DNA of 64,000 bases, taken from a virus. The notes beneath the pieces are model-generated. The model was not told where the DNA came from. It saw only the letters and a list, made by a program, of their open reading frames with translations, and ran no database searches. The stretch covers positions 4,770 to 68,769 of IMG/VR virus record IMGVR_UViG_3300026157_000001. One strand, given 5' to 3'. The position numbers and the translations under genes are program-made. Shown one piece after another: positions 1-59,100 of the stretch. Each line of letters starts with the position of its first letter. Position 1 is the first letter of the stretch.

Positions 1-1611
1 CTGACCTTTTCGGGCCTTGGCTTCGTTTTTAGCAGCCATATAATAAGAGGTAGGCGCTGCTAATAAAAAGGTTCCCAGCGTTTTTTCAAACGGGGAAGCT
101 TTGGACGCATGCTTAATATTAAAAATTTCTTCGTTAACCGGTTCCAAGGCTTCTTTTTGTTTATTCTCTATTGCTATGCCCATGCCTAATCCTGCTACAG
201 GTGCTATCCATGGATTCTTAGCTATAAACTTAGTGAAATTACTGACATTTGCACTGTTGCCAAATATTTTAGCATAACCTGCATATAGAGCTCCGACAGA
301 TGTCATTAAGGGGATGGCGTTTTTTACACCACTTCCTGCTGGTCGAGGCTCATCATCAAATAAAAGGCTATTTATAAAAGACTGTTCAATCTCTTGTCGG
401 TTAGGATATAACTCGACACCCTTACTTTTTATGTTAGCACTCTTCTCTATGATTCTATTAATAATAGCTGGTTTTGTCAAGGAAAACTTGGAAATATCCG
501 GTTTTATTTCGTTTGCAACCTTCTCATTTACATAATCAGGGCCGATATTATTGATCTCCGGTGCATCTTTTGGGCTGGTCTCGAAAACGAAACCTTTTTC
601 TTCCAAAAGTTTTGCCAGTTTTCTGTTTCCAGTTGTGTATAACGCGAGCTTTTGAAAATCCTCTCGTTTTGGGAGGATTCTTAAAGCACAAAATGTTGAT
701 AAAGTTTCGTTAAGCGGATACTGAGATAGCTTCTCGATCTGCTCATCTGTAAAATTTTCTTGTGAATCTAATATGATTCGTTTTGGGTCTTCTTCAATGG
801 CGTCTATTTCGCCGGCATTAATTTCTTTCTTAATTGAGGCATGCTTCTTATCTGACATTAAATTTGCGGCCTTCTCCATAGTTGCCTCGTTGTCGACTTG
901 TGCGGTCGCACCCGGTCCGGATGCATCTTCTGCCATTTTACCAAACCCAATAGGTGCCATAATTGCTGCCAGTGGATCTGCTGGAATAGTTACAATCGAA
1001 AGGTCAAAGAACCTAGGCTTTGTATTAATAGCATATACACGTCTACCGTCGTCAAGTATTTTGTTCATCTTGTTACGAAGATAGTCACTGTATTCTTTTC
1101 TAGTTCGTGCTTTCTTTCCTGTTATAGAGCATACGTCATAAGGTACTTTACATCCCATTGATAGTTTGATGTTCATGCCTTTTTTCATATTAGTCATTAA
1201 TTTACAAACGTCCGGGTGGGACTCTTGAAGTTTAATGACTGTCTCTACTCTTTTCATGTGAGGGTTATAATAAGAATAAATAACCTTGCCCATAGATTTT
1301 TTAGGATCTTTGTTTACATGATGTTTATAAACGTGACCGTGATCTACAAACGTATGGTGGTATTTTTTAAGAGCCTCTTCTGGAAAGAAGTCACCATTTC
1401 TATTTGGTCCATAATATTCTCCAGCTGTAAGTGCATTGGCTAATGCATACACGAATCCCGGCTCACGATCTAGTGAGTCAAGAAATTGGGCAACCTCGGA
1501 GGCGTATTCTGCTGTTTTGACTAAGCCCTCTGTTTTAGAAGGCTCTGGCAAAATAGAAAAAATCTCTTGGTCATCCTGTGTTTGGATATACTCAGCTGTC
1601 TTTTCTATCAT
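1..1611 (-). CDS. Putative prohead/head maturation protease (3' end runs off the window)
   Basis: Open frame from ATG at 1611, absent from the ORF track because it has no stop in the window. Reads MIEKTAEY...GPNRNGDFFPEEALK...HVYKHHVNKDP...LSMGCKVPYDVCSITG...FFDLSIVTIPAD, resembling large-phage prohead proteases. Lies near the terminase. Confidence 0.6.
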   Translation of the reverse strand, partial: MIEKTAEYIQTQDDQEIFSILPEPSKTEGLVKTAEYASEVAQFLDSLDREPGFVYALANALTAGEYYGPNRNGDFFPEEALKKYHHTFVDHGHVYKHHVNKDPKKSMGKVIYSYYNPHMKRVETVIKLQESHPDVCKLMTNMKKGMNIKLSMGCKVPYDVCSITGKKARTRKEYSDYLRNKMNKILDDGRRVYAINTKPRFFDLSIVTIPADPLAAIMAPIGFGKMAEDASGPGATAQVDNEATMEKAANLMSDKKHASIKKEINAGEIDAIEEDPKRIILDSQENFTDEQIEKLSQYPLNETLSTFCALRILPKREDFQKLALYTTGNRKLAKLLEEKGFVFETSPKDAPEINNIGPDYVNEKVANEIKPDISKFSLTKPAIINRIIEKSANIKSKGVELYPNRQEIEQSFINSLLFDDEPRPAGSGVKNAIPLMTSVGALYAGYAKIFGNSANVSNFTKFIAKNPWIAPVAGLGMGIAIENKQKEALEPVNEEIFNIKHASKASPFEKTLGTFLLAAPTSYYMAAKNEAKARKGQ

Positions 1612-2111
1612 TACATGAACAAGCTTCCAGCTCCTAATAGGTCAGCTCCTTCGTCTCTTCCCATGTTGTCTTCGATCTTAGCTAGGGTATCATAAGTATC
1701 TATAGTTGGTCCACCTAGATCTGGTCTGACTCGTGCATTAATGTTTTGAGTGATAAATCCGCCTGCTGCTATTGGGTCTCTGGCTAGTCGAGGTGAAGTT
1801 CTATATAGGGTTCCTCATAGCTCTGCTACTTCTTCTACATCCTCTTCCATTAGCGCTGGGTTGGCTTTTAACATTTCTTCAAAATATTTAGGCTCAATAG
1901 CTTTCATATACTTTCTTTCTACGAGCTCTGATAGCTTATTGGCAAAACGTGCTACTATAACAGCACCACCAATAATTCCCACTATTTTTAAAGCGTCCAT
2001 CGGAGATTTTCCGACCGCTGCCACCTTCTCGATGGTGTCTACACGCATTTGATGCGCTGCTGCTTTTTCGGCAGCTATTTTGATAAGTTCTTTTTTCTTA
2101 TTGATATCCAT
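1611..2111 (-). CDS. Hypothetical virion protein, 166 aa, one TGA read as Trp
   Basis: Frame continues through TGA 1815-1817 (AEL*GTLYRTSPRLARDPIAAGGF) to TAA at 1611, forming a TAATG overlap with the next gene. Confidence 0.8.
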
Positions 2112-3123
2112 AAGTTCTTTTTAATTTGTTTTGTAGATCAATCTTATTTTTGAATTGTGCTGCCGCTGCAAATTGTTTAGGGTTCTTACCTTTATAAAGG
2201 CCAATTCCATACATTCCACCACCTGCGGTAATAACAGGATGTTTTTTACCAAATCTAAGAAGATTTGCCAGCGCACCTGCTGCATAACCTAAAGAGGTTC
2301 TCGCTCTACCTAGTTTTTCCAAGGTTCCATCTTCTGGAATAAGTTCAGCAATTTTTTCATAATGGTCTTTATAGAATAAGGCTGTTACGCACTCATTGTG
2401 TAAGTCGTGGACTCTTTGGACCAATTTATTTTCGTTGTTAATTTTTTGGCCGGCATACTTCTCAAGGTCATTTCCTTTTATCTTAATGCCATCTTTGTCT
2501 AAATCGTGTGAGATTTCTTCTACTATATAATCTCCGAACTCAGACGCTTCTTTGATTGTATATTCTAGTGCTGCGGCGTCGGTGCCGGATAGGTAAGCTT
2601 GTTTTACTGTAGAGTAGATCGGCTGAAGCCTGCTTTCAATCCTAATGCCATTCTCTAGTACATTAGATTGTGCTATTTTTAGATGGGATAACAGGTCAGC
2701 TGTTTTGTTATAATTTTTCCAGGCTGGAATATCTTCTTCCTTTTCTGCAGTTTTCTCTTGCTTGGCTTCTTCATGTTTTTTGGAAGCTCTCTTCTCCTGC
2801 AGAAGTTGGTGAGCTCAGTCTTTTTTAGGAGCCTCTAAATAGTCTTTTCCTTTAGAAGCTGTTTTAGAGCTGGAGGGCTCTTCATCAATTACTTCATTAG
2901 GGTCGGCAACGTCAAACTCTATATAAGAGTCTTGGTCTGCTGTCTTCATAAGTTCTAGGTATGTTTTCACATTAGCAGCTTCCGCTACCCTGTGTACTTG
3001 ATTTTGATTTAACCCATGGAGTGTAGACACTTTTTCCAGTCCATCTGTAAGAGGGATCTGTCGGTCTAAGTATTCCTTAGATATTTGGGTTCCTAATTTT
3101 TCTAATTGTTCCGGCTTAACCAT
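2098..3123 (-). CDS. Hypothetical virion protein, 341 aa, one TGA read as Trp
   Basis: ORFs 2815-3123 and 2098-2424 share a frame, and the 130 codons between them are stop-free after TGA 2815-2817. Confidence 0.85.
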
Positions 3124-3128
3124 GCTTT

Positions 3129-3157
3129 AATATATTTTTATTGGCTGTAACAGTCAA
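3129..3157 (-). promoter_or_regulatory. Sigma70-like promoter, probably leaderless
   Basis: TTGACT-17nt-TATATT-5nt-ATG. Confidence 0.65.
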
Positions 3158-3160
3158 ATT

Positions 3161-4729
3161 TTATTGTAAATTTTCTCTCAGGCTGTCTGTCAACATCATT
3201 AGTGCCATGGAACCAAACAAGGTTGCATGCACAAAGTCGTCTGGGCCTACGTTAGTGTACTTTTCTTTATTCTTATCTTCGTCGTATTCTATAATTACGT
3301 TCCTAATGTCCGTAGTCATAGGCTCTATGTCCTGGTAATTAGGTAGGCGTAACTTCCCCTTTTTGAGCATTGTGAAGAATTTATTCATCACCCAGTTCTT
3401 ATTCATTGTATATGCTCGCATTTTAGGATTATACCTTACAGGCTCTTTTTGGGTAGGAAGATGTTGATAAGGCCATACCTTTTCTAAGCCTAACCTGTTT
3501 CTAAATTCACTGTTAGGCGCTTCTCCCATACCGTAGTCACTAGCTAGTAGTGAGCAGTTCCACTTTTTAAATATCTTTGGGATTTCTTCATGTATATACG
3601 AATAGTCTGCTTCTTTACCTAAAAATTTCTTAGCGTATACAACCTGTAATTTACCTTCCCTTTCTTGAACAATAGATATACAAGTATGAGATTTTTCCGA
3701 ATTTACCGGGCCATAGTCAATACCCATAATAGTAGGCCTGCCAACAGAATGTTTATCAGGGTTGGGGCTCATTCTAAAGTCTGGATTACAAGCCGCTATC
3801 ACTTCTTCTTTTGTAATTGGGATAGCTCCTGAATCATACTCTAGCCCTAGAGTCTCATTGTTAAACAGAGCGGTGCTCTGGTTTTCCATCTTGTAAATGA
3901 CGTCGTCTTGCCAATTAACCCATGGTGAGTGCGCAAAGTGTAAAAGACAAACTCGGTAGCCTTCCATTTTAGGCCTGTCTTTCATATGCTCATAAGTAGA
4001 CACCCACTGGCCTTTGGCCTTTCTAAGGTCTAGTTTGTTTCCGCACTTAGAGCAGATTAAATGATTAGCCCCTATATTATCCGGGCCTAGTATATTCCAG
4101 TGGTTACAGGCTTCACACTTTATCGCATACTCATTTTGTGAAGACTTAAACCAAAGATCTGCTAATGTGCCCTTTGTTCTTTTAGGTGTGCCTGCATATA
4201 TACTGCGCTTTGTTACTGAGCGTGACATTGTTTCCTCAATAACTCCTATAACGTCTTTTCTTAAATCCTGAGTTTCGTCAAATAAACAGACGTCTGAAGA
4301 AATACCTCGAATACGGTCAGCGTTAAGAAGTGCATAACGCATGTTAATAACGCTACCGTTCTTGAATTCTTTTTTAAATACGTTCTGCACCATATGTGCA
4401 TCAACGAAGTAGTCTCTTATAAGAGGTGAGTTTTTAATAACCGGTTCCAGTTTGTCACGAACAAACTCCTGAGTTTGAGCTACTGCAGGGGATACGTAAA
4501 GCTGTTTAAAGTTAGGCTTCATTAAAGCCCGGGCTAGGAGAATATTAGCTAAAGACGTACTTTTAGCGGTCTGTCTAGAAAATTTCATTACAACCTTCTT
4601 GGCTTCCGTATTATATATACGTCTCATATGAGGATAGTCGTCCAATGAAAATGGCTGACCTCCTAAATAGAAAAAATTCTCCGCAAAGTCACTGAGCGCT
4701 AGCTCAATTTGTTCCTTATCTTTGCCCAT
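3161..4729 (-). CDS. terL: Terminase large subunit (lambda gpA-like)
   Basis: KFSRQTAKST Walker A variant, LFDE Walker B, GTP motif, CxxC..CxxC zinc motif, and GIDYG...DD nuclease domain. Confidence 0.85.
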   Translation of the reverse strand: MGKDKEQIELALSDFAENFFYLGGQPFSLDDYPHMRRIYNTEAKKVVMKFSRQTAKSTSLANILLARALMKPNFKQLYVSPAVAQTQEFVRDKLEPVIKNSPLIRDYFVDAHMVQNVFKKEFKNGSVINMRYALLNADRIRGISSDVCLFDETQDLRKDVIGVIEETMSRSVTKRSIYAGTPKRTKGTLADLWFKSSQNEYAIKCEACNHWNILGPDNIGANHLICSKCGNKLDLRKAKGQWVSTYEHMKDRPKMEGYRVCLLHFAHSPWVNWQDDVIYKMENQSTALFNNETLGLEYDSGAIPITKEEVIAACNPDFRMSPNPDKHSVGRPTIMGIDYGPVNSEKSHTCISIVQEREGKLQVVYAKKFLGKEADYSYIHEEIPKIFKKWNCSLLASDYGMGEAPNSEFRNRLGLEKVWPYQHLPTQKEPVRYNPKMRAYTMNKNWVMNKFFTMLKKGKLRLPNYQDIEPMTTDIRNVIIEYDEDKNKEKYTNVGPDDFVHATLFGSMALMMLTDSLRENLQ

Positions 4730-4893
4730 CTCCTTTTTGCCTGTTTATGTGCTTCTCGTTTCTTGTCTGAGGGTTTGGTATAAAACTGATTTGATTTATA
4801 TTGCTCCAGGACCCCTGATCGTTGTACCTTACTCTTGAATATCTGTAGGGCTTTCTCTAGGTTCCCGTCCCTGACGTTTACTTTTACTGGCAT
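4699..4893 (-). CDS. rpsU: Ribosomal protein bS21
   Basis: MPVKVNVRDGNLEKALQIFKSKVQRSGVLEQYKSNQFYTKPSDKKR is a typical bS21 sequence. Confidence 0.92.
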   Translation of the reverse strand: MPVKVNVRDGNLEKALQIFKSKVQRSGVLEQYKSNQFYTKPSDKKREAHKQAKRRWAKIRNKLS

Positions 4894-5698
4894 CTTCTTC
4901 TAAATTTCGTTTTGATTTATACTCTAAAAGGTCCTTAAAGAACTCTCCGTTCTCGTCATATTGCAGAACTTTATAAATAATATTTTGTTTACTGTTCCTG
5001 CCCGGACCCCAGTCAGAAGAATACGCAATTTTTCTGTCTTTATCAACTGATTCTACAAAATCTAAAGCATCTTGGAAAAGTGTCCTAACTTTTTCTTTTT
5101 GTCTTTCTACTTTATAATATTCAAATAAAGATTCTCTAGGATTGTTTTTAACCATACTAGAAAGCTTACGCTTCTCTGTTAAATAATCTTTTACAAGTTT
5201 ATTGAAATGTCTTACTTTAGCGTCAGCCACTAAGAACTCTGACCAGAACTTGGCGTATGTTGGTGCCATGTCTTTTCTCTCTGGTGGTTCGTTTAGCCAT
5301 TCATCTTCCATGACATCATAAACGCCGAAGTCAATAGAAGCTAAATTTTCTGCTGTGTCTTTTCTCCACTCAGCTAAGAAATAACTTATCACACGATTAG
5401 TGCCTTTTGCTATTCGTCCGTTATATTTTTTAGCTCCGTGAGTCTTTGATTTCCCGGGCTTAAGGCCTTCGATGGCAACCATGATATCAATATCACTTGT
5501 ATCACTGTATTTATAGCCCGTTAATGAGCCCAACATATAAACTCCCCTTAAAGGCCCGTCTCCAGCATCTTCAGCAATTTCTTTTGCGGTAGTTAAAGCT
5601 TGTCTACGGATCTCCGGATACATCTTCTTGTCTTGATTCCAAATGTCTGGAGATAATGAATCCCTGAGTCTTTCTATTACACTAGCTGGTTTATACAT
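4829..5698 (-). CDS. Pol-beta superfamily nucleotidyltransferase
   Basis: LGSLTGYKYSDTSDIDI matches the hGS..DxD motif. Confidence 0.75.
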   Translation of the reverse strand: MYKPASVIERLRDSLSPDIWNQDKKMYPEIRRQALTTAKEIAEDAGDGPLRGVYMLGSLTGYKYSDTSDIDIMVAIEGLKPGKSKTHGAKKYNGRIAKGTNRVISYFLAEWRKDTAENLASIDFGVYDVMEDEWLNEPPERKDMAPTYAKFWSEFLVADAKVRHFNKLVKDYLTEKRKLSSMVKNNPRESLFEYYKVERQKEKVRTLFQDALDFVESVDKDRKIAYSSDWGPGRNSKQNIIYKVLQYDENGEFFKDLLEYKSKRNLEEDASKSKRQGREPRESPTDIQE

Positions 5699-6524
5699 CG
5701 TCTTCGTTTTCTACCTCTTTAATATGTTCAATAGGTTTCTCGTCTGTAGAGAAAGTCTTAATTTTAAATTCAAAGTCTTCAAGAATGTTGTCGGCGTTTG
5801 CTCTTTTGTCCTTCTCTATAGTATCGATACGGTCGGTAACCTTAATGGTTAAGTTAGCCCAGCGTTGTGCAACATCTGGACGTATCTTACTTTGCTCTTT
5901 AAAGTTATAGTAAGAGTCTTGAGCAATATCCCGTAGCATGTCTGCAAAATCTTTTTCAGGAGTTACTCCTAATTTCCATAATAGATGCTGCTTATCTCCT
6001 TTTAATGCAATCTTATAATATTTGCGAAGCTGTGGCTCGTTAATACCCTTTACATAGTTTTGACGATCTTTTAAGGTCCACTCAGAAACGTTAAAGAAAT
6101 ATTTAAGAAACATCTTAACGTCATCAGAGGAATACTCCATATTATACTTACCGTTGACGATAAGTTCTATATCTTCGTCTGTAATAAGGGCCAGGGCCAT
6201 AGATGTGATAAGACGGTACATCAGCGGGTCATTTAAAATCTTGATGGCACCGTCAAGGCTCGGGGTGTCTTCCGGGAAATCGAAGTTAGTAAAATGGACG
6301 AAACCTTCTACAACGTCGTGATCTCTTATTCAATCTGGGTCCGCGGGTTCTGGGTTCTTCCTGTCAAAATACTCTGGAGCCTGGCTACGTAATGTATCAT
6401 ATACAATTGTTATAGCCTTTTGTGGAATAGGCTGATCGTAGTCTTCTAGTTTTTCTATCAATCCATCAACTGAAAACTTAGATATTACTAAGGTTTCAAT
6501 AAACTTTAAATGTGGTATTTCCAT
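5691..6524 (-). CDS. Hypothetical protein, 277 aa, one TGA read as Trp
   Basis: ORFs 6330-6524 and 5691-6221 join in frame through TGA 6330-6332 (DPD*IRDHDVVEGF). Confidence 0.85.
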
Positions 6525-6775
6525 TATTCTTCGTCTTCTGTGCCGAATTTAATATAGTATTCTAGCGCTTTCTTTGATGGCATCGCTTTCATAGAAGCGA
6601 TATAAATTAAATCATTGGTTACTGGCTGTTGCCAATGAAGCTGGAGATCTTCTCCTGAGTCACCGATCATCTGCTCTGTCTCACATTCATACTCGAATCC
6701 GAGGATAGTCTGTAGTTTTTGAGCTAAGTCGTTATAGCGCTCTGTTCCGGGATGTTCGATAACTATCGTTCTCAA
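6524..6775 (-). CDS. Hypothetical protein
   Basis: ORF with a TAATG overlap to the downstream gene. Confidence 0.7.
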   Translation of the reverse strand: MRTIVIEHPGTERYNDLAQKLQTILGFEYECETEQMIGDSGEDLQLHWQQPVTNDLIYIASMKAMPSKKALEYYIKFGTEDEE

Positions 6776-6779
6776 TTTA

Positions 6780-7121
6780 TTAGTCCTTCATTACTAATGC
6801 AGTTCCGCCAACGCCCGTACCGGCAAGAATTTTGCCTCGGTTCTCGTATACTTTTTTACCTTTGTTATATAAAGCTTTTTGCTGTTGTGACGTATGCCCA
6901 GCTGTGACTCCGGCAGGTGTTCTTCTAGCAGATGAAACGCCTTTACCGGTAGCTCCTGCATAAAGCGCTTTGCCTTTAGAGCCTAATTCGTCGCTCAAGC
7001 CTTTAGTCTTGGTTACAAGCCTTGACAGAGTTTTTAGGCCTCCACTCCAAAGAGCTTTCTTTTCAATACTATCTGAGAACCCTTTCATTGCAATAATTTT
7101 TTCTTCGTGTGATAAATCCAT
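6780..7121 (-). CDS. Small basic protein with EKKA motif and C-terminal Gly-rich helix
   Basis: ...FSDSIEKKA|LWSGG...ILAGTGVGGTALV. Confidence 0.7.
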   Translation of the reverse strand: MDLSHEEKIIAMKGFSDSIEKKALWSGGLKTLSRLVTKTKGLSDELGSKGKALYAGATGKGVSSARRTPAGVTAGHTSQQQKALYNKGKKVYENRGKILAGTGVGGTALVMKD

Positions 7122-7146
7122 TTTTCTATCTTTTATATTTTAGTAG

Positions 7147-7995
7147 TTAAACGTTTGAGGGACTAATCATAGAATTGCTTAGTCGCCGTGTACTGTTTCG
7201 TGTTCCTTTTTCTAAAGTCGTTTTTGTAATCTTAGGTGCTGCCATAGTTGCGCCTATAGAGGTTGTTGCTCCACCCATAAAACTTTTGTTTTTTATAGCA
7301 CCTTTAAAGCCTCCCAGGCTTTTAGTCCCTGTAAAAGTGGCTCCTCTAGCAAAGTTACCTAAATTTATATTTTTTAAAGACTTGAATGCCTTTATACCTA
7401 AATTCAAAATGCCCCCTATAGCTGCTGTCTTTTTAATCTGAGTCGGGCCATAGTATTCTTTTCCCCGGCCAATATTAATTGGGCGGTGAGTTCAGCTTTT
7501 AGTTAGATACTCGATCGCATCGGAAGTAGGCATCCGCCTACTTCTACCAAACTCTGCGGGATCCGCAGAGTGGTATAACTTTGGCAAAATTTTAGAAGCA
7601 TTTGGGTCTGTTTTAATAGGAATGAGAGCTGCTGTTTTCTTTTGCTCTTTTTCTATTTTATTGGCTGCTGCCATAAAAACAGGATAACCGATGGCTCCTG
7701 CAGCTGTACTTTTTATAAGCCGAGGGCCTGTTCCTCTGTATAATGTTTTCATTGTTTTAGCATCTGGGCGCAGGTCTCTTAATTTTATTTTCTTTCCAAA
7801 GTCTGTATTAGCCTGGGCGTCTACAGCAATGGTATCAAGGGGTTGAGTTGTTAGTGTAACTGCTGCGCCTGATAGACTCCCTGCCATGAAGTCTTTCTTA
7901 AAATCTTTCCAAAACTTTTGTTTAGCCTTCTCTTCTGGTGTGAGCTCAGGCTTGGTAATTACTACCGGTATTGGTTTTTGTTTGTCTTTTTCCAT
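7147..7995 (-). CDS. Modular protein with a mitochondrial-carrier-like repeat, 282 aa, one TGA read as Trp
   Basis: ORFs join through TGA 7492-7494. Contains FMAGSLSGAAVTLTTQPLDTI..Q and LYRGTGPRLIK. Confidence 0.75.
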
Positions 7996-8321
7996 TAGTT
8001 CTTAAAAAATCTTATATTTATCTCTTCGTCGTCTGACTTAAGCATTTCCCAAGTCTGCTTTGTGCTATAGTCCAGTGCGGTATAGAACAATGTCTTAAAC
8101 TCAATATACTCCATATCGGCTGTTAAAATATCTCCGTCTAGTGTGAATACATCTGTCCACTTATCTCCAAATTCCGAAGGTTCAAATCGTATGATCTCCT
8201 GCGTACTTAATGATATAGGTCTTCGCACTGAAGGGTTAATATCACTTAAGTTCATTAAGAAGTCTTCTAAATCTTCGTACTCGTCCGGGTCTGCACTAAT
8301 TGATATAAAGTCTATAAACAT
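7995..8321 (-). CDS. Hypothetical acidic protein
   Basis: ORF with a TAATG overlap. Confidence 0.7.
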   Translation of the reverse strand: MFIDFISISADPDEYEDLEDFLMNLSDINPSVRRPISLSTQEIIRFEPSEFGDKWTDVFTLDGDILTADMEYIEFKTLFYTALDYSTKQTWEMLKSDDEEINIRFFKN

Positions 8322-9582
8322 CGCCTTCGTTTTTCATGGAGTCTTTAGCTAGCTGTGAAATAATTTTGTCTTTAATTGCATGCTCTTTTAAAGCCGGTGC
8401 AAGTCCTAGTGTTGGAATTCCAGTTAAATACGGATGTTTTAAAATAAAAGAATCAGACTGATGCTGTCCGATACTACGTCTTACAAACTTCTCTTTATCT
8501 TCGCCGAGGTTATAGTTGCCACCCAGTCGTTTCTCTATGTCTGATACGTCTAAGGCTCCTTTCTTAACAAGATTTTTTACCTTTCCGGAATCCTTTAGAT
8601 ATTGACCTCCTACAGCAGTTAGTCCTGCACCTAAGCCTACTGTACCTCCAAAAGCAGCTCCCTCTGCAATTTCTTTTGCTGTGGGGCCGTTATCGGGTAG
8701 CTTTGGGTTTAAGGCTGTAGCAATTCCTCCTGCTGCGGTACCGCTTAGGGTAGTTGTAGCAATTATTTTTGCTGGGCTAAAGCTGGCTTCTTTAATTTTC
8801 TTTGCTGCAAATGGGGTAGCTGCTGCTCCGCCTAGGCCTATTCTAGCTGACCATGTTTTAAAGCCTTCTTTCCAAACCTTTCCTCTGGCCTCTTCCCAAG
8901 CTTTTTCGGCATCTTTATTTGTCTTTCTGGCTTTTTGCTTAGCTCCGCCGGAAGCCTCTTCTAGTTTTTTAGAGGTTTCCGTTAAACGCTTTCCCAGCGA
9001 ATCCATCTGACCTTTTGCTGCTTTATAGTTTGTTCCCTTTATAGCAGACCATAGGCTTGATGTTTTAATAACTCCTTCGCCCTCTAATATTCTAAGCTTT
9101 GCTCCTAATGGAAATCGCGGATCTTGTAACATTCCTCTGACCACATTAGACTCACCGGCTCGATAAATTTGTTTTGCTTTTTGTTTAACAATCTTTTGGT
9201 CTTTCTTTTTTGAGTCATAAATCTCTTTAGCTCCAACACCTGCTCCAACGGCTACCGGTGTTGCCACGGCGGCTTGTGCCATTCGTGTACTCTTCTCAAT
9301 ATTCTTAGCAGTGCCTTCCATTTCAGCAAGATCTTTTTTGTTTTTTCTAAGATCTTTTAATTTTTGAAAGGTGCTACGGTCATCAACAGCTATTTGATTT
9401 TTACCTAGCTCTTTGGCTTTTGCCCCTTTAGGGACATCGTCCATTTTTCTAACCGTCTTTTGGCCTATAAACCACGGGTTATCTACTTTTCGCTGTAAAG
9501 CTTGGCCCCTTACTCTTGCATTTCGTAAAGTCTCCCCACGAATTAAATCGTAGGCTCCTTTAGCTTTTACTTTTAATCCCAT
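8296..9582 (-). CDS. Basic Gly/Ala-rich modular virion protein
   Basis: Several Gly-zipper segments and IKTS/IKEAS/VKKG motifs. Confidence 0.7.
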   Translation of the reverse strand: MGLKVKAKGAYDLIRGETLRNARVRGQALQRKVDNPWFIGQKTVRKMDDVPKGAKAKELGKNQIAVDDRSTFQKLKDLRKNKKDLAEMEGTAKNIEKSTRMAQAAVATPVAVGAGVGAKEIYDSKKKDQKIVKQKAKQIYRAGESNVVRGMLQDPRFPLGAKLRILEGEGVIKTSSLWSAIKGTNYKAAKGQMDSLGKRLTETSKKLEEASGGAKQKARKTNKDAEKAWEEARGKVWKEGFKTWSARIGLGGAAATPFAAKKIKEASFSPAKIIATTTLSGTAAGGIATALNPKLPDNGPTAKEIAEGAAFGGTVGLGAGLTAVGGQYLKDSGKVKNLVKKGALDVSDIEKRLGGNYNLGEDKEKFVRRSIGQHQSDSFILKHPYLTGIPTLGLAPALKEHAIKDKIISQLAKDSMKNEGDVYRLYIN

Positions 9583-9911
9583 TATTTAAAATACCTCTGG
9601 CCTTTATCGTTTATTGGTTTTGCATAGCTTCCAATTAGATTTGTATCTATGCCTTGTTCTTGTAGCGCTCGTCGTCGTCTAGCCGCTCTTCCTACATAGT
9701 AAGAACTTGTTGCAGCTGCTCCTCCTGCTATAAGAGGGAGAAACCCTCAAGGCTTGACAGGGTTAGATAAACCTGCTGCTACTCCAGAAGCCGCTAGTGA
9801 TTCTATGATAGACCTCTTCCTATGCTCTTCTAGTAAATGTGGATTCTCTTTGTAATGCTTGAACAGCGCTCTGTCCATCGCATCCAATTGGCGTCGTTGT
9901 GAATACTGCAT
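9582..9911 (-). CDS. Hypothetical membrane-associated protein, 109 aa, one TGA read as Trp; missing from the ORF track
   Basis: MQYSQRRQ...NPVKP*GFLPLIAGGAAATSSYY...RYFK with TGA at 9747-9749. Fills the gap exactly, with a TAATG overlap and an upstream promoter. Confidence 0.8.
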
Positions 9912-9916
9912 GCTTA

Positions 9917-9945
9917 AACATACTTACTATAGATTAAATTGTCAA
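9917..9945 (-). promoter_or_regulatory. Sigma70-like promoter, probably leaderless
   Basis: TTGACA-17-TATGTT-5-ATG. Confidence 0.6.
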
Positions 9946-9946
9946 C

Positions 9947-9965
9947 TTTTTTGGTATAAGAATAC
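9947..9965 (+). promoter_or_regulatory. Repeated plus-strand promoter motif TTTGGTATAAGA
   Basis: One of 10 copies, each upstream of a plus-strand gene block. Confidence 0.65.
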
Positions 9966-10054
9966 TGATCAGCTTTAAAAAACAACTAAAATCACCGATA
10001 GGAGGTAGACTGTGTAAACATGACTAACCGATCCATCCAACAAACGGGTTTTTA

Positions 10055-10444
10055 ATGCTTCGACTTGAAGACGTAGAGAAAATATTTATTGAGCTGGAAC
10101 GCCTACATTTTTTAGGCTCCAGTGAAGATGAAGAGTTTCTTAAGATGGTTTTCGAGAACGCATGTACGCAAAAGAAGGTCAGCCCTTTAGAGATCGAAAT
10201 GACTTTCGACAGAGTAGGGTTTATGAACATCTATGGAAAAATAGTCAACTTTAAAATATCGTCTAGTTATGATAGCGCTGAAAAAGCTGACGAGGTAATA
10301 AAGCGAGTGTACAAACGGCTATACAATTCTAGAGGTAGGCATAATATTATGGCACTGATGCCTGATGAGCCACGGCCTGTAAAATTCGAAGTTCTGGTCG
10401 CAGAATGGGATATACATAAACTTAAAAGTCTAGAAAAAAGATAA
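10055..10444 (+). CDS. Hypothetical protein (single plus-strand island in the late region)
   Basis: ORF bounded by the promoter motif and a terminator. Confidence 0.7.
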   Translation: MLRLEDVEKIFIELERLHFLGSSEDEEFLKMVFENACTQKKVSPLEIEMTFDRVGFMNIYGKIVNFKISSSYDSAEKADEVIKRVYKRLYNSRGRHNIMALMPDEPRPVKFEVLVAEWDIHKLKSLEKR

Positions 10445-10445
10445 A

Positions 10446-10500
10446 AGGGAGGGAGGTCATAATAGCTAAATGATCTCCTCTTTTTTTTAGCTTAAGATTT
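10446..10500 (+). terminator. Bidirectional intrinsic terminator followed by AGCTTAAGATTT
   Basis: GGGAGGGAGGTCAT...ATGATCTCCTCT stem plus T8 between convergent genes. Confidence 0.7.
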
Positions 10501-16332: not shown

Positions 16333-16341
16333 ACCTTAAAT

Positions 16342-18024: not shown

Positions 18025-18455
18025 TACTTAATTACTTTTAAAATATCTTTGAGTGTTTTTGCTCCATAAGCAGACTTTGTACTGCTGATCGAAGATGTTA
18101 TGTGATCTACTCCCCGGCCTGCTCTCACTAACGGATTCATATTCTTTTGTGACTTTCTAAGTTCTGACCTGCTCGCAGACATCTCATTTAAGAACGTGTC
18201 TTTAACGCCTCTTAATGATTTCTCTTGGGTCCTTGGATACCTTCCCTTTTCTTTATTGATATAATGGGTTAGCTCGTGACGTAGAATTTTGCGTTCTCCG
18301 CCTCTAGAAGTTACGGGGTCGATATCTACCCTTCCTTTCGTACCAGCGTCCGGCACAAACTGACCTCGGCGTCCTCCGGGCAATGCACGGTATTGTACGA
18401 GGGGTCCGGCCGCGTTCTTTTCAAGTAGATAATCTACCGGTGTGACTTTGTTCAT
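18024..18455 (-). CDS. Small HExxH metallopeptidase-like protein
   Basis: ILRHELTHY with a downstream E; N-terminus DYLLEKNA. Confidence 0.65.
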   Translation of the reverse strand: MNKVTPVDYLLEKNAAGPLVQYRALPGGRRGQFVPDAGTKGRVDIDPVTSRGGERKILRHELTHYINKEKGRYPRTQEKSLRGVKDTFLNEMSASRSELRKSQKNMNPLVRAGRGVDHITSSISSTKSAYGAKTLKDILKVIK

Positions 18456-21640: not shown

Positions 21641-21645
21641 AAGTT

Positions 21646-45913: not shown

Positions 45914-47295
45914 ATGAAAGACCATAATATTATCTTTTTTCAAATAAAAGCTATGTTAGAACTAACACTTGAGTTTAGTTTGAGAGAAATTCCTAACCCA
46001 CTTTCTAATAAAGTGCCTACTCAAATCTATGCAAGTAAGGGACGAGCAAGTTTTGCTAGAATAGAAGTATTAGACCCAAACCGCGTCCGTTATGGGTTCA
46101 ACAACAGAGTAAATAAAAGGCTTCTTGAAGAATATAAAGAGTATCTAAAAGAAATGGGATTTGAAAAATGATAACAGCGTATATACAAGCACTTGAGAAT
46201 TTAGTAGAACGTCGCCTCTCTGAAAATTTAAGGAAATCCCCGGAGTCATCTGTCAGGTCACCTTCGCTTTCCAGGCGAGTAGCTGTAAACCCTTTAATAA
46301 TATCTCAAGGTCCGGCAATTACTGAGTCTCACCGCAAATTTTTACAAGACCATGAAAAACTTTTAAGACAAATAGGAATATTACCATGAAAAGCCCCGTA
46401 GATTTACATGTAGCCTTTATATTTTTAGAAACTTATCTAGAGTATGCTTTAGCTGATGAGCTTGATCTGTTTTTTGAAAACCTGCAAGTGACAGACCTTG
46501 AAAGTTCTACAAGACAGCATAGAAAGGTATTTTCAGAGGTTATCATTCATATATCTGCTCCCCGTGCCATAGGGGACAATGAGCACTTTTATGAGATACC
46601 TAACTTTTTTACGTTTATAGCAGCTTTAAAGTCGGATCACAGAAATTACACAATCGCTAGCTTTTACAATAGAGATGGAACTGATTAAAATATTAATATG
46701 CCTGGAGATTTATACAGAGGACAGAGCTATAGACTTTAATACAGACTGCTGCTGGTCACGTCATTTCTATAAAAACCTAGACCCTCTGGACCCTAAAATC
46801 CACGCAGACCATGATTTTTATGGCTATATGAGAGGAGCAGCCTTAAAAGATATAAGGGGACCTATCAAGTCCTATGAACGCTACCTTGTTTTATCAGGAC
46901 TTATTATCGAAAAGCTACCTATAAAAGACTACCTAATAAAACTAGAATGCCTTATGGAAGATACGTTCGATGAAAGACGAAAAGTAGCAACTTTAAACTA
47001 TAACAGAGTTAACTATGATCTGTATGATAAATATGAAGATACCTATATAAGGAACTATGTCTACGGAGGATAATCGACATTATAATACCTCTGAAATAAG
47101 ATGGGCAATGGACGGACCCCCTCACCGATGAGTAAAATAGAACTTAAACCTAAAATTATAATCTTTGAAATTTTTATAGACGAAGTCCTCTCAAATAATT
47201 ATTATCTAGACTATACATTGCTGGATCACTATTTCGAGAACGGCTTCTTACCTATGCCAAGAGTCAGGGCATTAGGCCTTGCTTTTAAACCTTAA
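45914..47295 (+). CDS. Cluster of five small hypothetical genes (45914-46171, 46168-46389, 46386-46688, 46675-47073, 47101-47295)
   Basis: Overlapping small ORFs sharing a hydrophobic-LExxxE pattern. Confidence 0.55.
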
Positions 47296-48054: not shown

Positions 48055-48696
48055 GTGTATAAACAAGCTGTTTTGCTGTCATCAAAGGGAAATCTTTATT
48101 ATAGTACAAACTTTTATCATATGGCATTAAAGCCTAAGTTTAAGTTTAACCTTTCTATCTTCAGACAGTTTAGCCCTCCGGGCTTTAGTGTGGGCTCCCC
48201 TTTTATCTTTAATGATGACGGTACTTTACCTGACAGAGTGTCAGCAGACCTTAAAGAAGAAGGCAATGAAATCCTATACTTTACCGACCGTAGAGACTAT
48301 AAAAACTTTTTAGCCAGAAACAGACTAACTCCACACCCTGCATTCTTAGACCGGAACTATCCAGGACGTATAGACCCTTATCTAGCCTGAATAGCCAGAC
48401 CATATACAATGGTTGAGGATGCTAATAAAACTCGGTGATATCTCGACTATCGAAAGATTCCTATCGTCTCGCACACCGACTTACAGAAAACATGGTTGAC
48501 ACACTTCTTTGATTCGCACATAGAGGCCCGCTTCTTAAGCCCTAACGGTGCCGACACAGATTATCAACCCTTACCATTCTTATATACACTTACGATCTCT
48601 AAGGCGTTTTTTATAGCCTTTTCTGGAAAAGTACCGATAAAGGCAGCATGGTCTTTTATGGACCAGAGCGAATTACTTGAGAATCTTTTGGTATAA
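48055..48696 (+). CDS. Hypothetical protein, 213 aa, two TGAs read as Trp
   Basis: ORFs 48055-48390 and 48496-48696 share a frame; only TGA 48388 and 48436 intervene. Confidence 0.7.
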
Positions 48697-51370: not shown

Positions 51371-51835
51371 ATGCTAAATAATCCTATAGATCCTTTATGC
51401 CCGGAACAATCTTTAATTGGTTTATTATCGAGTCTTGGAATTTTAGATGATACTTTGTATTTTAACCTAACCCGTAGCCTCGTAAGAACCGGCAAGATTC
51501 GATATACCGACCAACATATGATAGAAGCTGTTTTTCAATCTGTAGACGGCCAACATCAAATTACAGCTGTTAAAACCAGAAGGACAAAACTGGGCCAAGA
51601 TATTGGAATACTCGCATATTTCCACAGACTCTTCCCAGGCCCACCTGAACTATTAGCTCAAAGAGAATATAGAACAACATCAGATTTTAATAGAGATTTA
51701 AGATCTGCAGAAGGTAAAAGACTAAATTTACGACAACATAAGACAACATTAAACACCAACACAATAACTTTTCCACATAAACTCAGACGAGGTCTCGCGG
51801 CAATTACAACGACGGGACATTTTAACTATATATGA
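51371..51835 (+). CDS. Hypothetical protein
   Basis: ORF with an ATGA overlap. Confidence 0.65.
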   Translation: MLNNPIDPLCPEQSLIGLLSSLGILDDTLYFNLTRSLVRTGKIRYTDQHMIEAVFQSVDGQHQITAVKTRRTKLGQDIGILAYFHRLFPGPPELLAQREYRTTSDFNRDLRSAEGKRLNLRQHKTTLNTNTITFPHKLRRGLAAITTTGHFNYI

Positions 51836-52626: not shown

Positions 52627-53268
52627 TGCTAAAAGAAACATTAGAAGATCTTACATACCTTCTTTACGAAGTACACGGGCTTAATCCACACAAAGGAGAC
52701 ATTATTGAATGTCCTTTTTGTGTCGAAGGGTCTTCTCGATTTTACTGCTTGTACTGCACATCCTCCGGTATTGCCCACCTTAAATTTTACAAAACGTTTA
52801 AACAATTGATAAAAAGGCATTTCACATGGACCGATATATCTCACTAAGAGATTATTTACTTTTGCTTCAGGGGCATCTTTACGATAAAAACACACCTTAT
52901 TTCAAAAAAGACTTTCTTTTATGCCCAAATTGTAAAAGTGAAAGTTTTAAAAGTCCTTATGTGTGTGTTATCTGCATGGGGTGTGCAACCTTGGATAAGA
53001 GAAACCCGGCTCAATTTAACTATTTAAGTAGACATTATAAATGAAAAATGGAAACTTTCCGATAACTTACTATCTTGATGGGCTCCAGAAGCAAATATAC
53101 CATAACATCCGACCTCCCTTTAAAAATAACTTTATGGGATGCACAAGTTGCGGTGACGACCCTCGCTTTGCTGTTATTAGATGTTCAATTTGCGGAGGGT
53201 CTTATGAAATAGATAAAAGGGACGCAGACATCTTTAACCATTTAACTAAATACCATGAAACTAACTAA
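52626..53268 (+). CDS. Three tandem small CxxC..CxxC zinc-finger proteins (52626-52847, 52826-53044, 53041-53268)
   Basis: CPFC..CLYC, CPNC..CVIC and CTSC..CSIC; the last two share DKR...FN.L.. Confidence 0.65.
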
Positions 53269-54261: not shown

Positions 54262-54325
54262 TATAAATAGGTATAAGAATAATGAACGAAACATAACTTT
54301 AATTTTAATTTTAATTTAGCAGCCG

Positions 54326-55627
54326 TTGAATAAGCTAATAGGAACAATAAAAGATATGGCGTCTGCAATTATTGTAGAAACCGTAAGACAACTAATAATA
54401 AATACAACTCAGGAACATATCACAGTAAAAGTCTCTGAGTTTTTTGATAGAAATAAAGTATGGGTGCAAGTTAATCACTCAAATACATTATACAGCGCGC
54501 TGTTATTTTTCTTGTCCGAACGAGTAAAACAAGACTCTGTACAGAAATTTACAGCAGCCATCTTAAATAAATATAACACTAGCCATTTAGAACAGAACCG
54601 AAATCTTTTGATAGCTCCCGGAGAGGACGAAATCACGGTGACCTATAAAAACTGCGAGTTTAAATTTCACCGTACAGAGCCTATATCATCTAAAGGGTCA
54701 AGCTCTGCAGAATCATTAACACCAGAGGATGAAAAACCAGGATTTAAAATTACCACCCATAAACGAAACCGAGCAGTCTTGGTCGAGCTTCTCAAAGAGG
54801 CTTACTCAGACTATACTGCTGAAGTGCGCACAGGAGCTTCCGTCTATTATACTCGCTGGGGCTCTGATTTTTTCCGTGCGGAGACAACAACGCTCCGACC
54901 GTGGGAAAGCGTCGTGTTGCCAAACGAAAAAAGAAACACCCTAGAAAAACATATAGAGGATTTTTACTCTTCTAAAGAATGGTATACGGACAGAGGCATA
55001 CCTTATAGAAAAGGCTTCCTCTTGCATGGCCCGCCCGGAACAGGTAAAACATCAATTGTAAAAGGGCTAGCTAAAAAATATAATCTTGATATTTATATCA
55101 TAAGCTTCTCTTCTACAAACTTTGATGAAAGCACACTGACCGACTTATTCAATGATATACCGGAAGGTGTAATTGTTTTATTTGAGGACATTGACGGATT
55201 ATTTAAATCTCGTCAGGACCCGAATAAATCACCGGAAGCTGATGACAACCCTATAAGCTTTAGATCCTTTATTAATCTATTAGATGGAGTTATGTCACCG
55301 GAAGGCGTATTAATCTTTATGACGACAAACTTTAAAAATCGCCTTGATGAAGCATTAATCCGACCAGGCCGTTGCGATGTGAGAATGGAGATTGGTTATA
55401 TAGACGAAGAGATGGCTAAAGATTTCTTTCGATATTTCTATAAGGATAAAGATGATTTAGACGATCTAGTCGTAGAACGGTTTTGGAGTGTAATCGGTGG
55501 CACACCAAAGTTAACCATAGCAGTACTTCAGAGTTACCTTACTAAATATAAAAACGACCCCGGACAAGCAGCCACGAACGTTTATTTTGAAGAGTTCTAC
55601 ACGGATTATAAAAAGGAGAACCAATGA
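54326..55627 (+). CDS. BCS1-like AAA+ ATPase
   Basis: WYTDRGIPYRKGFLLHGPPGTGKTS, FEDID, LLDGV, MTTN and LDEALIRPGRCD. Confidence 0.85.
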   Translation: MNKLIGTIKDMASAIIVETVRQLIINTTQEHITVKVSEFFDRNKVWVQVNHSNTLYSALLFFLSERVKQDSVQKFTAAILNKYNTSHLEQNRNLLIAPGEDEITVTYKNCEFKFHRTEPISSKGSSSAESLTPEDEKPGFKITTHKRNRAVLVELLKEAYSDYTAEVRTGASVYYTRWGSDFFRAETTTLRPWESVVLPNEKRNTLEKHIEDFYSSKEWYTDRGIPYRKGFLLHGPPGTGKTSIVKGLAKKYNLDIYIISFSSTNFDESTLTDLFNDIPEGVIVLFEDIDGLFKSRQDPNKSPEADDNPISFRSFINLLDGVMSPEGVLIFMTTNFKNRLDEALIRPGRCDVRMEIGYIDEEMAKDFFRYFYKDKDDLDDLVVERFWSVIGGTPKLTIAVLQSYLTKYKNDPGQAATNVYFEEFYTDYKKENQ

Positions 55628-56125: not shown

Positions 56126-56126
56126 C

Positions 56127-59100
56127 ATGTCATTACAAGAAACCGAACGGTTTAATACCAGAGAAGGTACGAAGGGTATGAGTAAAGGAATTGACGCATC
56201 TTCAGAAAAGATGGTCATGGATATACTCCAGGCTACCCAGTATGCAAAGCCTGAAGAATCTACAGTACGTGAGCTAGCATCCAATGCTGTTGATTCACAA
56301 AGAGAAAAAGAGATTGCGTATGATATTTTGTCAAACGGGGCTGACCCTGACGACTACTTTGTCGAACGAGAGGGAGCGCAGTACGAAAGCTCTAAATGGG
56401 ATCCGTCCTATTTTGATATAAACTATTTCGACATGACGAAAACAAACGTTCTCATTCAATATATAGAGAACGCCGGCACAGGCTATTGCGACGAGTTCAG
56501 TGTAACTGACTATGGCGTAGGTCTGGGCATGCCAAGACTCCGGGGTTATTTTAACTTAGGATATTCCTCAAAAAGAAATACAAAACATGCGTTAGGCGCT
56601 TTTGGTATCGGAGCAAAAAGTCCGCTGTCAACTCAGGTGCCATTCTATACTCTAGAAACTGCGCATAACGGCCGGAAGTATAAATTCAATATCTATCCCT
56701 ATAAAGTAGAGAGTACAACCCCTCGCTTTAATATGGAGACAGAGGATGAATACCCAACGCAGAATATAGGCACAGAAAAAGACCCCTATATCATCCACTA
56801 TATTCCAACGGATGAGAAAAACTTCTGTAAAGTATCAATGGGTGTCAAGCGCCATAACCGGCACAGATACCGTGATGCGGTAAAACACCAACTACTGTAT
56901 TTTCCCAATGTAGACTTCCAGTATAAATATGAAGGCAACGACCATTGGAATGAAATAGAGTTTCAGGCAGATATTCTACACAACAGCGACAGCCTGATTA
57001 TATCCTCTAACATGCAGTATAGTAAACCACACATTGTGGTAGTAAAAGAGAAAGGATCTGACATGGGCGTTACCTATGGCACGATTGATTTCCAAGAGCT
57101 TGAGATGGAAACCCTACGTGGTTCTATCGGCTTTAAATGTCCTATTAGATCGGTCGTGGAAGACCGAGAGACTGGTGAACGAAAAGTAGTACAAGACGGC
57201 GTTTCTGTAAATCCTAGAATTTGGTTATTAATATAACTTTTTGTACTTTAGATTATGAAAAAATCTAAAGCAGGTATTTATAAAATAAGTTTCCAATGTA
57301 GCCATTTAAATGTATACTACGGAAGCACAAATAAGTTTAACAGGCGTAAATCTCAACATTTACATCTTTTAAGACGAGGTAAACATAGTAACCCTATATT
57401 ACAGAGTTACTTTAATAAATATGGAGAAACCTCATTTAAATTTAGTAAAGTTGAGACAATCTTAGATGAAGACGAAGAGTATATAGTAAAGCGAGAGCAG
57501 TATTATATTGATGCTTTAGAATCTAACCAAGATATAAAAACTCTTAATTGTAATTTGGAGGCTGGAAGGCCTCCTTATACATGAACAGAAGAAAGACGAG
57601 AGGAGCTCAGAGAGCGTAATAAAAATTATAAGTGGACAAAGGAAAGACGAGAAAAGCACTCTCGTATAAAACAAGGATCCACACGCTCAGAAGAGGCTAA
57701 AGAAAAAACCTCAGAATCTTTAAAAGAGTTTTATTCTCACCTAAGAACAGAAGAAAGGGCCTGCCCTTATTGTAATTCGCTTTATACAAGGAAAGTTGGT
57801 AAGCGATATAATAAAACAAAGAAGCAAATGAATCAGCGATATAAATGCACCGACTGTGACAAGAACTTCTTTAAACCTATCAAAAAGTAATTAATAACTC
57901 GCTGGGCCTTTATAGAGCAATCTATAAAGTGCATTGGGTGAATTGCTGGAAGGCGAAAGCTAATCAGCAGCCAAGCTAGGGGTACACCCCTAGAAGGTTC
58001 AGAGACTAGTGGAGGGGTAAAGCCCCCTTAATGACCACAATAGCGCCCAACATCTCTCAGAGATGATGATATAGTCCACCCCGCTTTATAAGTGCGGGTT
58101 GAGCAGAGAAAGCGTTGTCTGGGACGAAAACACCAGAGCTTATATCCAGAAAGTAATTAAAGATGCTCAGGATGAAGCATCAAAAATTATCCAGGCCGAG
58201 CTAAAAACAGATGATTTCTATACATGGCTGCAGCGCAGCACAGAGATTATCAATCAGATGAGCGCCTTCTCCTATCAGGAAACAAAGCTAACTATATTAG
58301 CAAAGATTGTTGATAAGCATAAGCTTCAAACAAAGTTTCCAGGAGACTCACGCATTATATATAAGCATAACCCGTCTACATTCTTTAAGGATATAGAAGT
58401 AAAAGCTATTGAAAAAGACCAGATCTATAAAAATGGCAAATATAAGACAAAGATAAACCGGGATGATGTACCAAACTGGGGATACTTTAAAGGGTCTTTA
58501 GTGTATGAGATGACTGAGGACGAGCGCCACAGTGTGACGAAAGATCTTTATATTCAGCACTTAAAGGATAGCAATCACTTTATTACAGTAAAGAAAGCTA
58601 CCGATGAGCAAGTAAAAGAACGAATAGGTAAACGCTTTAAAGATACTCAGGTAGCCACAAGAGGTGGTGAAAAGATCACCAAAAAGATTAAAGAAGAAAT
58701 CGCATACGCTATAGAACAGCGAGACATTATTTGGGATGCGCTATTTGGAAGTGATCATATAGAGATTGAAAACTATGCTGACATTGAAGTAACGGATGAG
58801 TTCCGAGAACTGATGAAAAAGCAGAAGGAAGAAGCGGAAGAAGAAGAACAAGAAGACAAAATGGCAAATATGACGCCTAAAGAGCGTCGTGAAATGCTTG
58901 GTAAGACTGTTTGCTATTCTTTCAAAAAGAACCCAAGAGCTACCGGGTACAGCAGCTCTAAGGACTGGGTGCTATCAAAGAAAGAGCCAGTCGTAAATGA
59001 CTTGGTCAATTTTGATAAACCGGTTATCTACGGTACGTCAAAAGATGACGACAGACTTAAAGCGTTATCAGCTTTCTTTTCACATGACGTATGTCAGAGA

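Follow-up and report, generated by a model that had tools for sequence, protein, structure and literature searches.

TGA as a tryptophan codon in the late genes of a large phage from soil metagenomes

We have analysed a window of 64,000 nucleotides (nt), bases 4770-68769 of the single 68,769-nt contig of IMG/VR record IMGVR_UViG_3300026157_000001, with attention to the TGA codons that lie in frame within its genes. The record is classed as a linear virus with a completeness estimate of 35%, and the phage, from soil metagenomes, has a genome of roughly 200 kb, of which the window covers about a third; part of the record is contained in nine runs, all labelled soil metagenome and none of those listed recorded as RNA, five of them with at least half of the sampled words. 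A late block of packaging and virion genes occupies the minus strand from position 1 to 21640 and extends left past the window to genome position 257, and an early or replication block of 62 genes follows at 21749-63856, mostly on the plus strand, with a primase-helicase, an exonuclease, an AAA ATPase and rIIA/rIIB-like genes. The late block includes the large subunit of the terminase (3161-4729, minus strand; phrog_675, E 1.6e-69), and the major head protein (phrog_2522) is encoded just left of the window. In the late genes, which encode the packaging proteins, the head and virion-borne enzymes, TGA is a sense codon for tryptophan, while ten of the early genes end at TGA in a pattern, often an ATGA overlap with the next start, that suggests that it has been kept there as an ordinary stop.

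A first-pass annotation, made from the letters alone, had listed 15 in-frame TGAs in the window, and all 15 of these positions are TGA on the strand that it gave. It had proposed that these codons rejoin broken genes and, in fact, under translation table 4 the fragments called with table 11 merge and the resulting open reading frames (ORFs) end at or near the next gene; the eight merged ORFs of the minus strand end 1-14 nt inside the next gene or 9-25 nt before it. It had counted 11 affected genes; we count ten in the window. The comparison of coding densities that it had suggested gave a rise from 0.886 to 0.927 when TGA was read through (greedy calling), with control values of 0.878 for TAG and 0.891 for TAA, and the mean gene length went from 208 to 243 amino acids (aa). 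Codon usage scored best in the frame of the TGA for 16 of the 17 segments that follow one, the sole miss being a gap of 11 codons. Eight further in-frame TGAs are located just left of the window, in two adjacent late genes at genome positions 257-1564, and the record therefore holds 23. Domain and homolog matches cross 10 of the 15 sites of the window, and the homologs have mostly Trp at 1815, 6330, 16423, 16711, 20345 and 57582.

Eight of the ten genes, here called A to H, belong to the late block and are encoded on the minus strand. Gene A (1611-2111, 166 aa), whose stop overlaps the next start by 1 nt, has its TGA at 1815-1817 (residue 99), and of the 52 relative loci 45 have W at this column (43 TGG and 2 TGA), 6 have F and 1 has Y. 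Similarly, the TGA of gene C (5691-6524, 277 aa), at 6330-6332 (residue 65), falls in a column with W in 34 of 42 loci (29 TGG and 5 TGA). The homologs of gene B (2098-3123, 341 aa) align across its TGA at 2815-2817 (residue 103), where 42 loci give a variable column (F 4, TGA 4, N 4, E 4 and others), and the segment after the TGA scores 0.427 bits per codon in frame against 0.073 and -0.022. Gene D (7147-7995, 282 aa) contains a stretch similar to the Pfam family Mito_carr and a TGA at 7492-7494 (residue 168); the homolog L043 was aligned over residues 25-263, and the column is F in three and V in two of five loci. In gene E (9582-9911, 109 aa) the TGA at 9747-9749 (residue 55) lies inside a Gly/Ala-rich hairpin, and the L043 homolog spans residues 4-109; because the two loci compared have G and V at this column, the spanning homolog supports readthrough at 9747 but does not show the residue to be Trp.

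The next three genes carry two or three TGAs each. Gene F (14338-16332, 664 aa), with a DUF3008 stretch, has TGAs at 15586-15588 (residue 249) and 14731-14733 (residue 534). At the former, a gap of 38 codons scores 0.402 in frame; the latter is the weakest site of all, since an ATG lies 11 codons downstream and a true stop followed by a separate second gene is possible there. Gene G (16342-18024, 560 aa) combines M48-like, DUF5662/HD and ParB-like modules, and its TGAs at 16711-16713 (residue 438) and 16423-16425 (residue 534) are each spanned by a match, to DUF5662 (residues 309-452) and to phrog_2859 (residues 441-558). The word-indexed protein search returned one homolog for this gene, and homolog P0001 has W at both sites. 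The first-pass annotation had aligned the TGA at 16711 with a Trp of an HD paralog, and in a MAFFT alignment this column is indeed W in the paralog, in P0001 and in L043; the BLASTP alignment of gene G with the paralog ends 10 residues before the TGA. Gene H (18455-21640, 1061 aa) encodes a LigD phosphoesterase together with an ATP-dependent ligase and is interrupted by an intein. It has TGAs at 20345-20347 (residue 432), 20261-20263 (residue 460) and 18857-18859 (residue 928), the first two of which are covered by the LigD_N match (residues 414-476). The Trp that had been proposed from the LigD motif is present in the structure 3p4h of the PDB and in the relatives, for W stands opposite the TGA at 20345 in 3p4h and in eight of eight loci; opposite the TGA at 20261, 3p4h has F and the eight loci have W in four and F in four.

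The intein of gene H occupies 20399-21532 of the window on the minus strand, runs from Cys37 to Asn414 (about 378 aa), includes a LAGLIDADG endonuclease, and sits within the LigD phosphoesterase motif; it has five TGG and no TGA codons, and the exteins have three of each. The TGAs at 9747 in gene E and 18857 in gene H share the motif P-x-W-G, in a loop between two Gly/Ala-rich hydrophobic stretches. In general, the multi-domain late proteins encoded at 14338-21640 on the minus strand bear modules unusual for virion genes (M48-like peptidase, DUF5662/HD, ParB-like, and LigD phosphoesterase with ATP-dependent ligase), and it may be that these enzymes are ejected proteins. Several proteins of the virion block also have C-terminal segments resembling Gly zippers.

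The two remaining genes of the window belong to the early block and are on the plus strand. Gene I (48055-48696, 213 aa) is an orphan ORF with TGAs at 48388-48390 and 48436-48438, for which the word-indexed protein search found no homolog, and it is supported by the continuity of the frame and by modest in-frame coding scores of 0.306 and 0.105. Gene J (57255-57890, 211 aa) encodes a GIY-YIG homing endonuclease that matches phrog_314 over residues 1-190 and has a TGA at 57582-57584 (residue 110); all four homologs have W at this column, as had been anticipated from an alignment of endonuclease repeats. Gene J is borne by a group I intron (57237-58096), whose core directly follows the gene at 57869-58096 on the plus strand (Rfam RF00028, 78 bits, E 4.1e-18). 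An rIIA-like ORF with a GHKL ATPase domain (56127-57236) precedes the intron and a 580-aa ORF (58099-59841) follows it, an arrangement in which the intron may split one gene. Left of the window, the late block continues on the minus strand with genes of 268 aa (genome positions 257-1063) and 166 aa (1064-1564), which contain five and three in-frame TGAs, respectively; this pair shows the densest use of the codon in the record, and the 268-aa gene has five TGA against three TGG. Searches of Pfam and PHROGs returned no match for genes A, B, C, E and I or for these two TGA-rich genes.

The 268-aa protein gives the richest view of what TGA stands for. It has 678 homologs, and among the best 150 of them, which were aligned and are mostly full-length (about 260 aa), the first TGA column is W in 133 of 133 and the second has W 73, Y 24 and F 18, followed by Y 71, F 34 and W 8 at the third, W 46, F 36 and Y 26 at the fourth, and F 50 and W 27 at the fifth. 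Of 18 database homologs that are cut at the C terminus, 13 stop immediately ahead of a Trp or TGA column, which is what gene calling of relatives with table 11 would produce. Thirty of 58 related loci carry at least four in-frame TGAs within their matches to the proteins of our phage and 28 carry none or one; we refer to the former as recoded and to the latter as standard-code. In standard-code relatives TGG stands at the TGA sites 1815, 6330 and 20345, as it does at three of the sites that precede the window, and, conversely, recoded relatives have TGA opposite TGG codons of the window phage, including invariant Trp positions of the terminase. Opposite the 212 in-frame TGAs of relatives, in a comparison covering 38 non-identical loci, the window phage has W at 107, a TGA of its own at 27, Y at 27, F at 12, S at 3 and G at none. 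A 2.4-kb metagenome contig of 75% identity shares four of five TGAs, with TGG in place of the fifth, and at one TGG site of the window phage it has TGA instead; the metagenome scan yielded no extension of the record. The homolog alignments that the annotation had recommended give Trp or aromatic residues at the TGA columns, with three sites of the window in variable or hydrophobic columns and five that no homolog spans. Its remark that TGG is the majority Trp codon is also borne out, by 200 TGG against 23 TGA in the record and by eight TGG and no TGA in the terminase. We regard the reading of TGA as Trp in the late genes as close to certain.

The letters themselves were compared over 1650-21645 with contigs of four runs (X2-X5), of which X2 and X3 are possible source runs and X4 and X5 were not flagged as such. 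The long pieces of X2 and X3 show 0-3 differences, none at a TGA; pieces of X4 with zero differences span the TGAs at 2815, 14731, 15586, 16423, 16711 and 18857, and pieces of X5 span those at 2815 (with one difference, at 3311) and 9747. As these statements draw on the differences listed and on the zero-difference pieces of the run contigs, the absence of a difference on a TGA holds among those. TGG in place of TGA in raw reads had been named as an observation that would overturn the reading, and the contigs of further runs keep the TGA letters. Moreover, the ten listed strain differences of an X4 variant contig at 6300-6375 are all at third codon positions in the frame of gene C, and a 165-nt variant contig across 15586 has 19 differences, the seven among those listed (15526-15580) being all at third positions of the TGA frame. 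Third-position differences on both sides of a TGA are the pattern expected of translated sequence, and at 15586 they add to the frame and the coding score, which are the support for the sites that no homolog spans.

The use of TGA differs between the two blocks. The late block, including its part left of the window, has 25 genes with 62 TGG and 20 in-frame TGAs and no gene ending at TGA, while the 62 genes of the early block have 138 TGG and three in-frame TGAs, all in genes I and J, and ten of them end at TGA. TGA thus accounts for 20 of 82 Trp codons in the late block versus three of 141 in the early one (Fisher p = 2.5e-7). The early genes that end at TGA are located at 27477-27989, 32179-32433 (on the minus strand), 45914-46171, 46168-46389, 51371-51835, 52826-53044, 54326-55627, 61141-61605, 63174-63389 and 63386-63856. 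In eight of these ten the TGA forms an ATGA stop-start overlap, which occurs in no late gene; one-base overlaps, on the other hand, number six in the late block and two in the early one. Readthrough of the TGA at 27987 would add an extension of 85 codons that scores -0.128, as non-coding sequence does, against 0.176 for the overlapping gene at 27986-28450. After each of the remaining nine early TGA stops, a TAA or TAG comes within 0-8 codons. The median distance to the next TAA or TAG is 5 for the early TGA stops and 10 for the early genes ended by TAA or TAG (one-sided Mann-Whitney p = 0.018; p = 0.059 with the late genes added to the control), and such backup stops would limit the damage once UGA is decoded. 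With TGA as the stop of 10 of the 62 early genes, plain table 4 misreads this record too. The reassignment had been described in the first-pass annotation as recent or partial: it is partial, in that it is limited to late genes, but its being recent is not supported: all nine rows of the terminase clade to which the phage belongs are recoded.

This clade has an SH-aLRT (Shimodaira-Hasegawa-like approximate likelihood ratio test) support of 100 in a terminase tree obtained by a quick tree search, on which the recoding label requires at least seven changes, three of them forced by well-supported branches. A genome scan returned two contigs binned in metagenome-assembled genomes (MAGs), of which the one of 204 kb uses the standard code and has tRNA-Trp(CCA) only. 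Three recoded relatives (G012, G013 and G014) are 97-100% complete, with 205-210 kb and 30-34 tRNA matches each, and every one of them has, apart from its main tRNA array, a tRNA of 97-99 nt with a UCA anticodon, at L160 351-447 (G012), L162 387-484 (G013) and L163 361-459 (G014). These tRNAs have the anticodon loop CUUCAAA, the discriminator G73 and an encoded CCA, and all three fold as a cloverleaf with a D stem of 5-6 bp and a long extra arm, which is an insertion relative to the tRNA-Trp(CCA) of the same genomes. Outside the arm, 54 of 73 positions are identical between the two tRNAs in G012, and 43 of 71 and 40 of 75 in the others; the anticodon arm of the G012 tRNA differs from that of tRNA-Trp(CCA) solely at position 34. 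No release factor (RF) and no tryptophanyl-tRNA synthetase (TrpRS) was found in the near-complete recoded relatives. Code 4 raises the coding density of G012 only within one contiguous half of the genome, from 180 kb via the contig ends to 75 kb; the late block of the window phage maps to 183.6-195 kb of this genome, and the UCA tRNA is found at 70.65 kb, at the border of the region. G012 and G014 also have a tRNA with a CTA anticodon, and reading through TAG brings no clear gain in coding density. Other terminase relatives, from a single-sequence scan, were set aside as too distant (25-36% identity), and no UCA anticodon is present among their tRNAs; a related-locus scan with an 858-aa protein gave no relative.

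Because the near-complete recoded relatives have a UCA tRNA, we propose such a tRNA as the decoder of the window phage as well. The early genes would be readable by an unmodified host that uses the standard code, and the late genes would be full-length only once UGA is decoded, presumably by a phage-encoded copy of tRNA-Trp with a UCA anticodon that would be located on the unsequenced part of the genome. Such a tRNA would tie the synthesis of the late proteins to the phage's own programme. We judge this complete model, with early TGA stops and a tRNA-Trp(UCA) on the missing part that switches the late genes on, to be rather probable, and we hold the combined statement, in which the reading of the late codons and the pattern of early stops weigh most, with good confidence. 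It is possible to go further and to suppose that in this family, whose genomes are of roughly 200 kb, the late genes went over to TGA as Trp several separate times, that a duplicated tRNA-Trp(UCA) with an acquired arm like that of tRNA-Sec is the sole device for the change of code, present also on the missing two thirds of the window phage, and that the arm is functional; the arm could delay the maturation of the tRNA or shield it, and in this way could time the synthesis of the late proteins. We consider this wider proposal tentative and, as a whole, rather doubtful.

Several observations weigh against the reading of the late genes and the model built on it. The TGAs at 2815, 7492 and 9747 fall in variable or hydrophobic columns of the homologs, and those at 14731, 15586, 18857, 48388 and 48436 are not spanned by any homolog in the searches made. 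Taken by itself, the contrast in TGA stops, with none in 25 late genes and ten in 62 early ones, is only marginally significant (p = 0.057), and two genes of the early block contain TGA, the orphan gene I and the intron-borne homing endonuclease gene J. Furthermore, the decoder is unseen: no tRNA was detected on the record with ARAGORN, with Rfam (E up to 1) or with R1, a clade model built from the UCA tRNAs of G012, G013 and G014, and no RF-1, PCRF or TrpRS domain is present on it. The closer recoded relatives (G006, G007 and G015, 24-38% complete) have tRNA-Lys only or no tRNA, and the relatives that bear the UCA tRNA share only about 50% terminase identity with the window phage. Model R1 matched nothing, either in the window and the 4.9 kb left of it or in those portions of the closer relatives that were retrieved. 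As the record is about a third of the genome, the absence of a decoder from it says little.

Other explanations differ in which part of this picture they dispute. That the TGAs are errors, marks of decayed genes or rarely leaky stops, with the frames downstream untranslated, has nothing in its favour beyond TGA being normally a stop, and we consider it hardly credible, given that contigs of four runs have the same letters, that the TGAs are shared or swapped with TGG across the phage family, that, downstream of 15586, every listed strain difference affects a third codon position, and that essential genes of the head and packaging region are affected. Slightly less improbable, though still very unlikely, is that TGA stands for another residue: Gly as in table 25, Ser, or selenocysteine (Sec) or Cys. 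The UCA tRNAs of the relatives would fit Ser or Sec to some degree, since their long extra arm and G73 are a shape accepted by seryl-tRNA synthetase, ARAGORN labels two of them SeC and one passes the Rfam threshold for tRNA-Sec (48.5 versus 47 bits); S also occupies one site left of the window in 13 of the 32 loci compared there. For Gly there is the G of a single homolog at the site in gene E, and a site left of the window shows G once or twice. Against this, the comparison with the 212 TGAs of relatives gave S 3 and G 0 versus W 107, which speaks against table 25, and at one TGA column all 133 homologs have W. No C is present among the residues listed at TGA columns, and SECIS (selenocysteine insertion sequence) elements and SelB were not searched for. 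The pair A1-U72, the discriminator G73 and the anticodon are identity elements of tRNA-Trp; two of the three UCA tRNAs have A1-U72, and outside the added arm they align with tRNA-Trp.

The remaining two alternatives accept Trp and place the decoding elsewhere. The whole phage could be read by table 4 in a host in which UGA is natively Trp, the early TGA 'stops' being read through; no suppressor tRNA is present on the record, and as nine of the ten early TGA stops are backed by a near TAA or TAG such readthrough would be cheap. However, a uniform code leaves unexplained both the 24% of TGA among late Trp codons versus 2% among early ones and the eight early ATGA overlaps, which have no counterpart in the late genes, the 85-codon extension past 27989 looks non-coding and runs over a gene that scores better, 28 of the 58 related loci use the standard code, and the three near-complete recoded relatives all bring their own UCA tRNA. 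We therefore think a table 4 host improbable. We give little more weight to the possibility that the late TGAs are Trp and are decoded without a phage tRNA, by a host suppressor, by a co-infecting element or through a phage factor that disables RF2, which would let the host tRNA-Trp(CCA) read UGA. This would agree with the lack of a UGA decoder on the record and on the 24-38% complete closer relatives, and a suppressor is detectable in only 35% of TGA-recoded genomes according to the preprint of Borges et al. (bioRxiv 10.1101/2021.08.26.457843). Nevertheless, the completeness of the record is only about 35%, all of the near-complete recoded relatives have the UCA tRNA and none has an RF or a TrpRS, and five TGAs in one 268-aa protein need efficient decoding.

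In Mycoplasma and Spiroplasma-type organisms that use table 4, and in their phages, UGA is read by a tRNA-Trp with anticodon UCA. The window phage differs from them in that it ends 10 of 62 early genes with TGA and has TGG as its main Trp codon (200 versus 23). Phages that read TGA as Trp ('code 4') were known, as the first-pass annotation had noted, and ours fits the model of late-gene recoding put forward by Borges et al. (bioRxiv 10.1101/2021.08.26.457843), who describe TGA-recoded gut phages with a bias to late genes, such as the Agate and Jade clades. As in those phages, in-frame TGA builds up in structural and late genes and the replication genes stay readable by the standard code, there are close standard-code relatives and recoding on several branches of the family, and a suppressor tRNA is present in only some assemblies. 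Unlike them, the window phage comes from runs labelled soil metagenome and belongs to a different family, the terminase having at most 27% identity to any of the 545 matching records of the phage collection, and its near-complete relatives lack the RF1 or TrpRS 'code change module' and have a UCA tRNA with an added long arm. Recoding with suppressor tRNAs is also reported in a 2026 survey of jumbo phages. The long arm, the D stem of 5-6 bp and G73 resemble tRNA-Sec-like and 'allo' tRNAs (Mukai et al., PMC5389517), but the minimum-free-energy folds have an acceptor of 6-7 bp and a T stem of 5 bp, not 8/4 or 9/3; moreover, the sequence outside the arm is tRNA-Trp-like, and the codon columns are Trp and not Ser or Cys. 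A literature search, supplements aside, found no description of a long-armed tRNA-Trp(UCA) in recoded phages, which is not proof of its absence.

It is thus well supported that the window phage belongs to the known class of phages with late-gene TGA-to-Trp recoding; it is set apart by coming from runs labelled soil, by its different phage family and by relatives with a long-armed tRNA-Trp(UCA). Late-gene recoding of this type, described mainly in gut phages, is in this way extended to a family of large phages in soil runs. For annotation, table 11 splits or shortens 10 genes of the window (12 of the record) and plain table 4 over-extends 10 early genes, and mixed-code gene calling is needed for the family, with 30 of the 58 related loci recoded alike. 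As standard-code and recoded members occur side by side, the family is well suited to studying the onset of a code change. With the long-armed tRNA-Trp(UCA), the complete relatives also offer a concrete decoder that can be tested.

Regarding the wider affiliation of the phage, megablast of the late block against the phage collection gave no match. The hints to a host are weak: Shine-Dalgarno sites precede 17 of 87 genes only, there is a BT4734-like primase domain, and the 204-kb relative was binned in a Bacteroidales MAG.

Finally, the window contains seven exact copies of a 12-mer, TTTGGTATAAGA as read on the plus strand, at 9950, 21702, 22772, 26923, 39084, 48687 and 50864. The copies have a single orientation, lie in gaps ahead of plus-strand genes and are often followed by ATAATGATAAG, and their placement makes it likely that the element is an early or middle promoter. 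Allowing up to two mismatches, there are 23 matches against a shuffle mean of 11.6, and none of 100 shuffles reaches 23. A reading of TCTTATACCAAA as a late promoter was rejected because all its exact copies face plus-strand genes. The assembly contigs break at copies of TTTGGTATAAGA, and contig joints, for example from 9977 to 10480, coincide with the repeated 12-mer and may be effects of the assembly graph. In X2 and X3, contigs join 9977 to 10480/10481 and leave out about 502 nt, a stretch (9978-10479) that contains the sole plus-strand ORF within the late block (10055-10444); the skip may reflect an insert that varies between strains, or it may have arisen in assembly from the repeated 12-mer.

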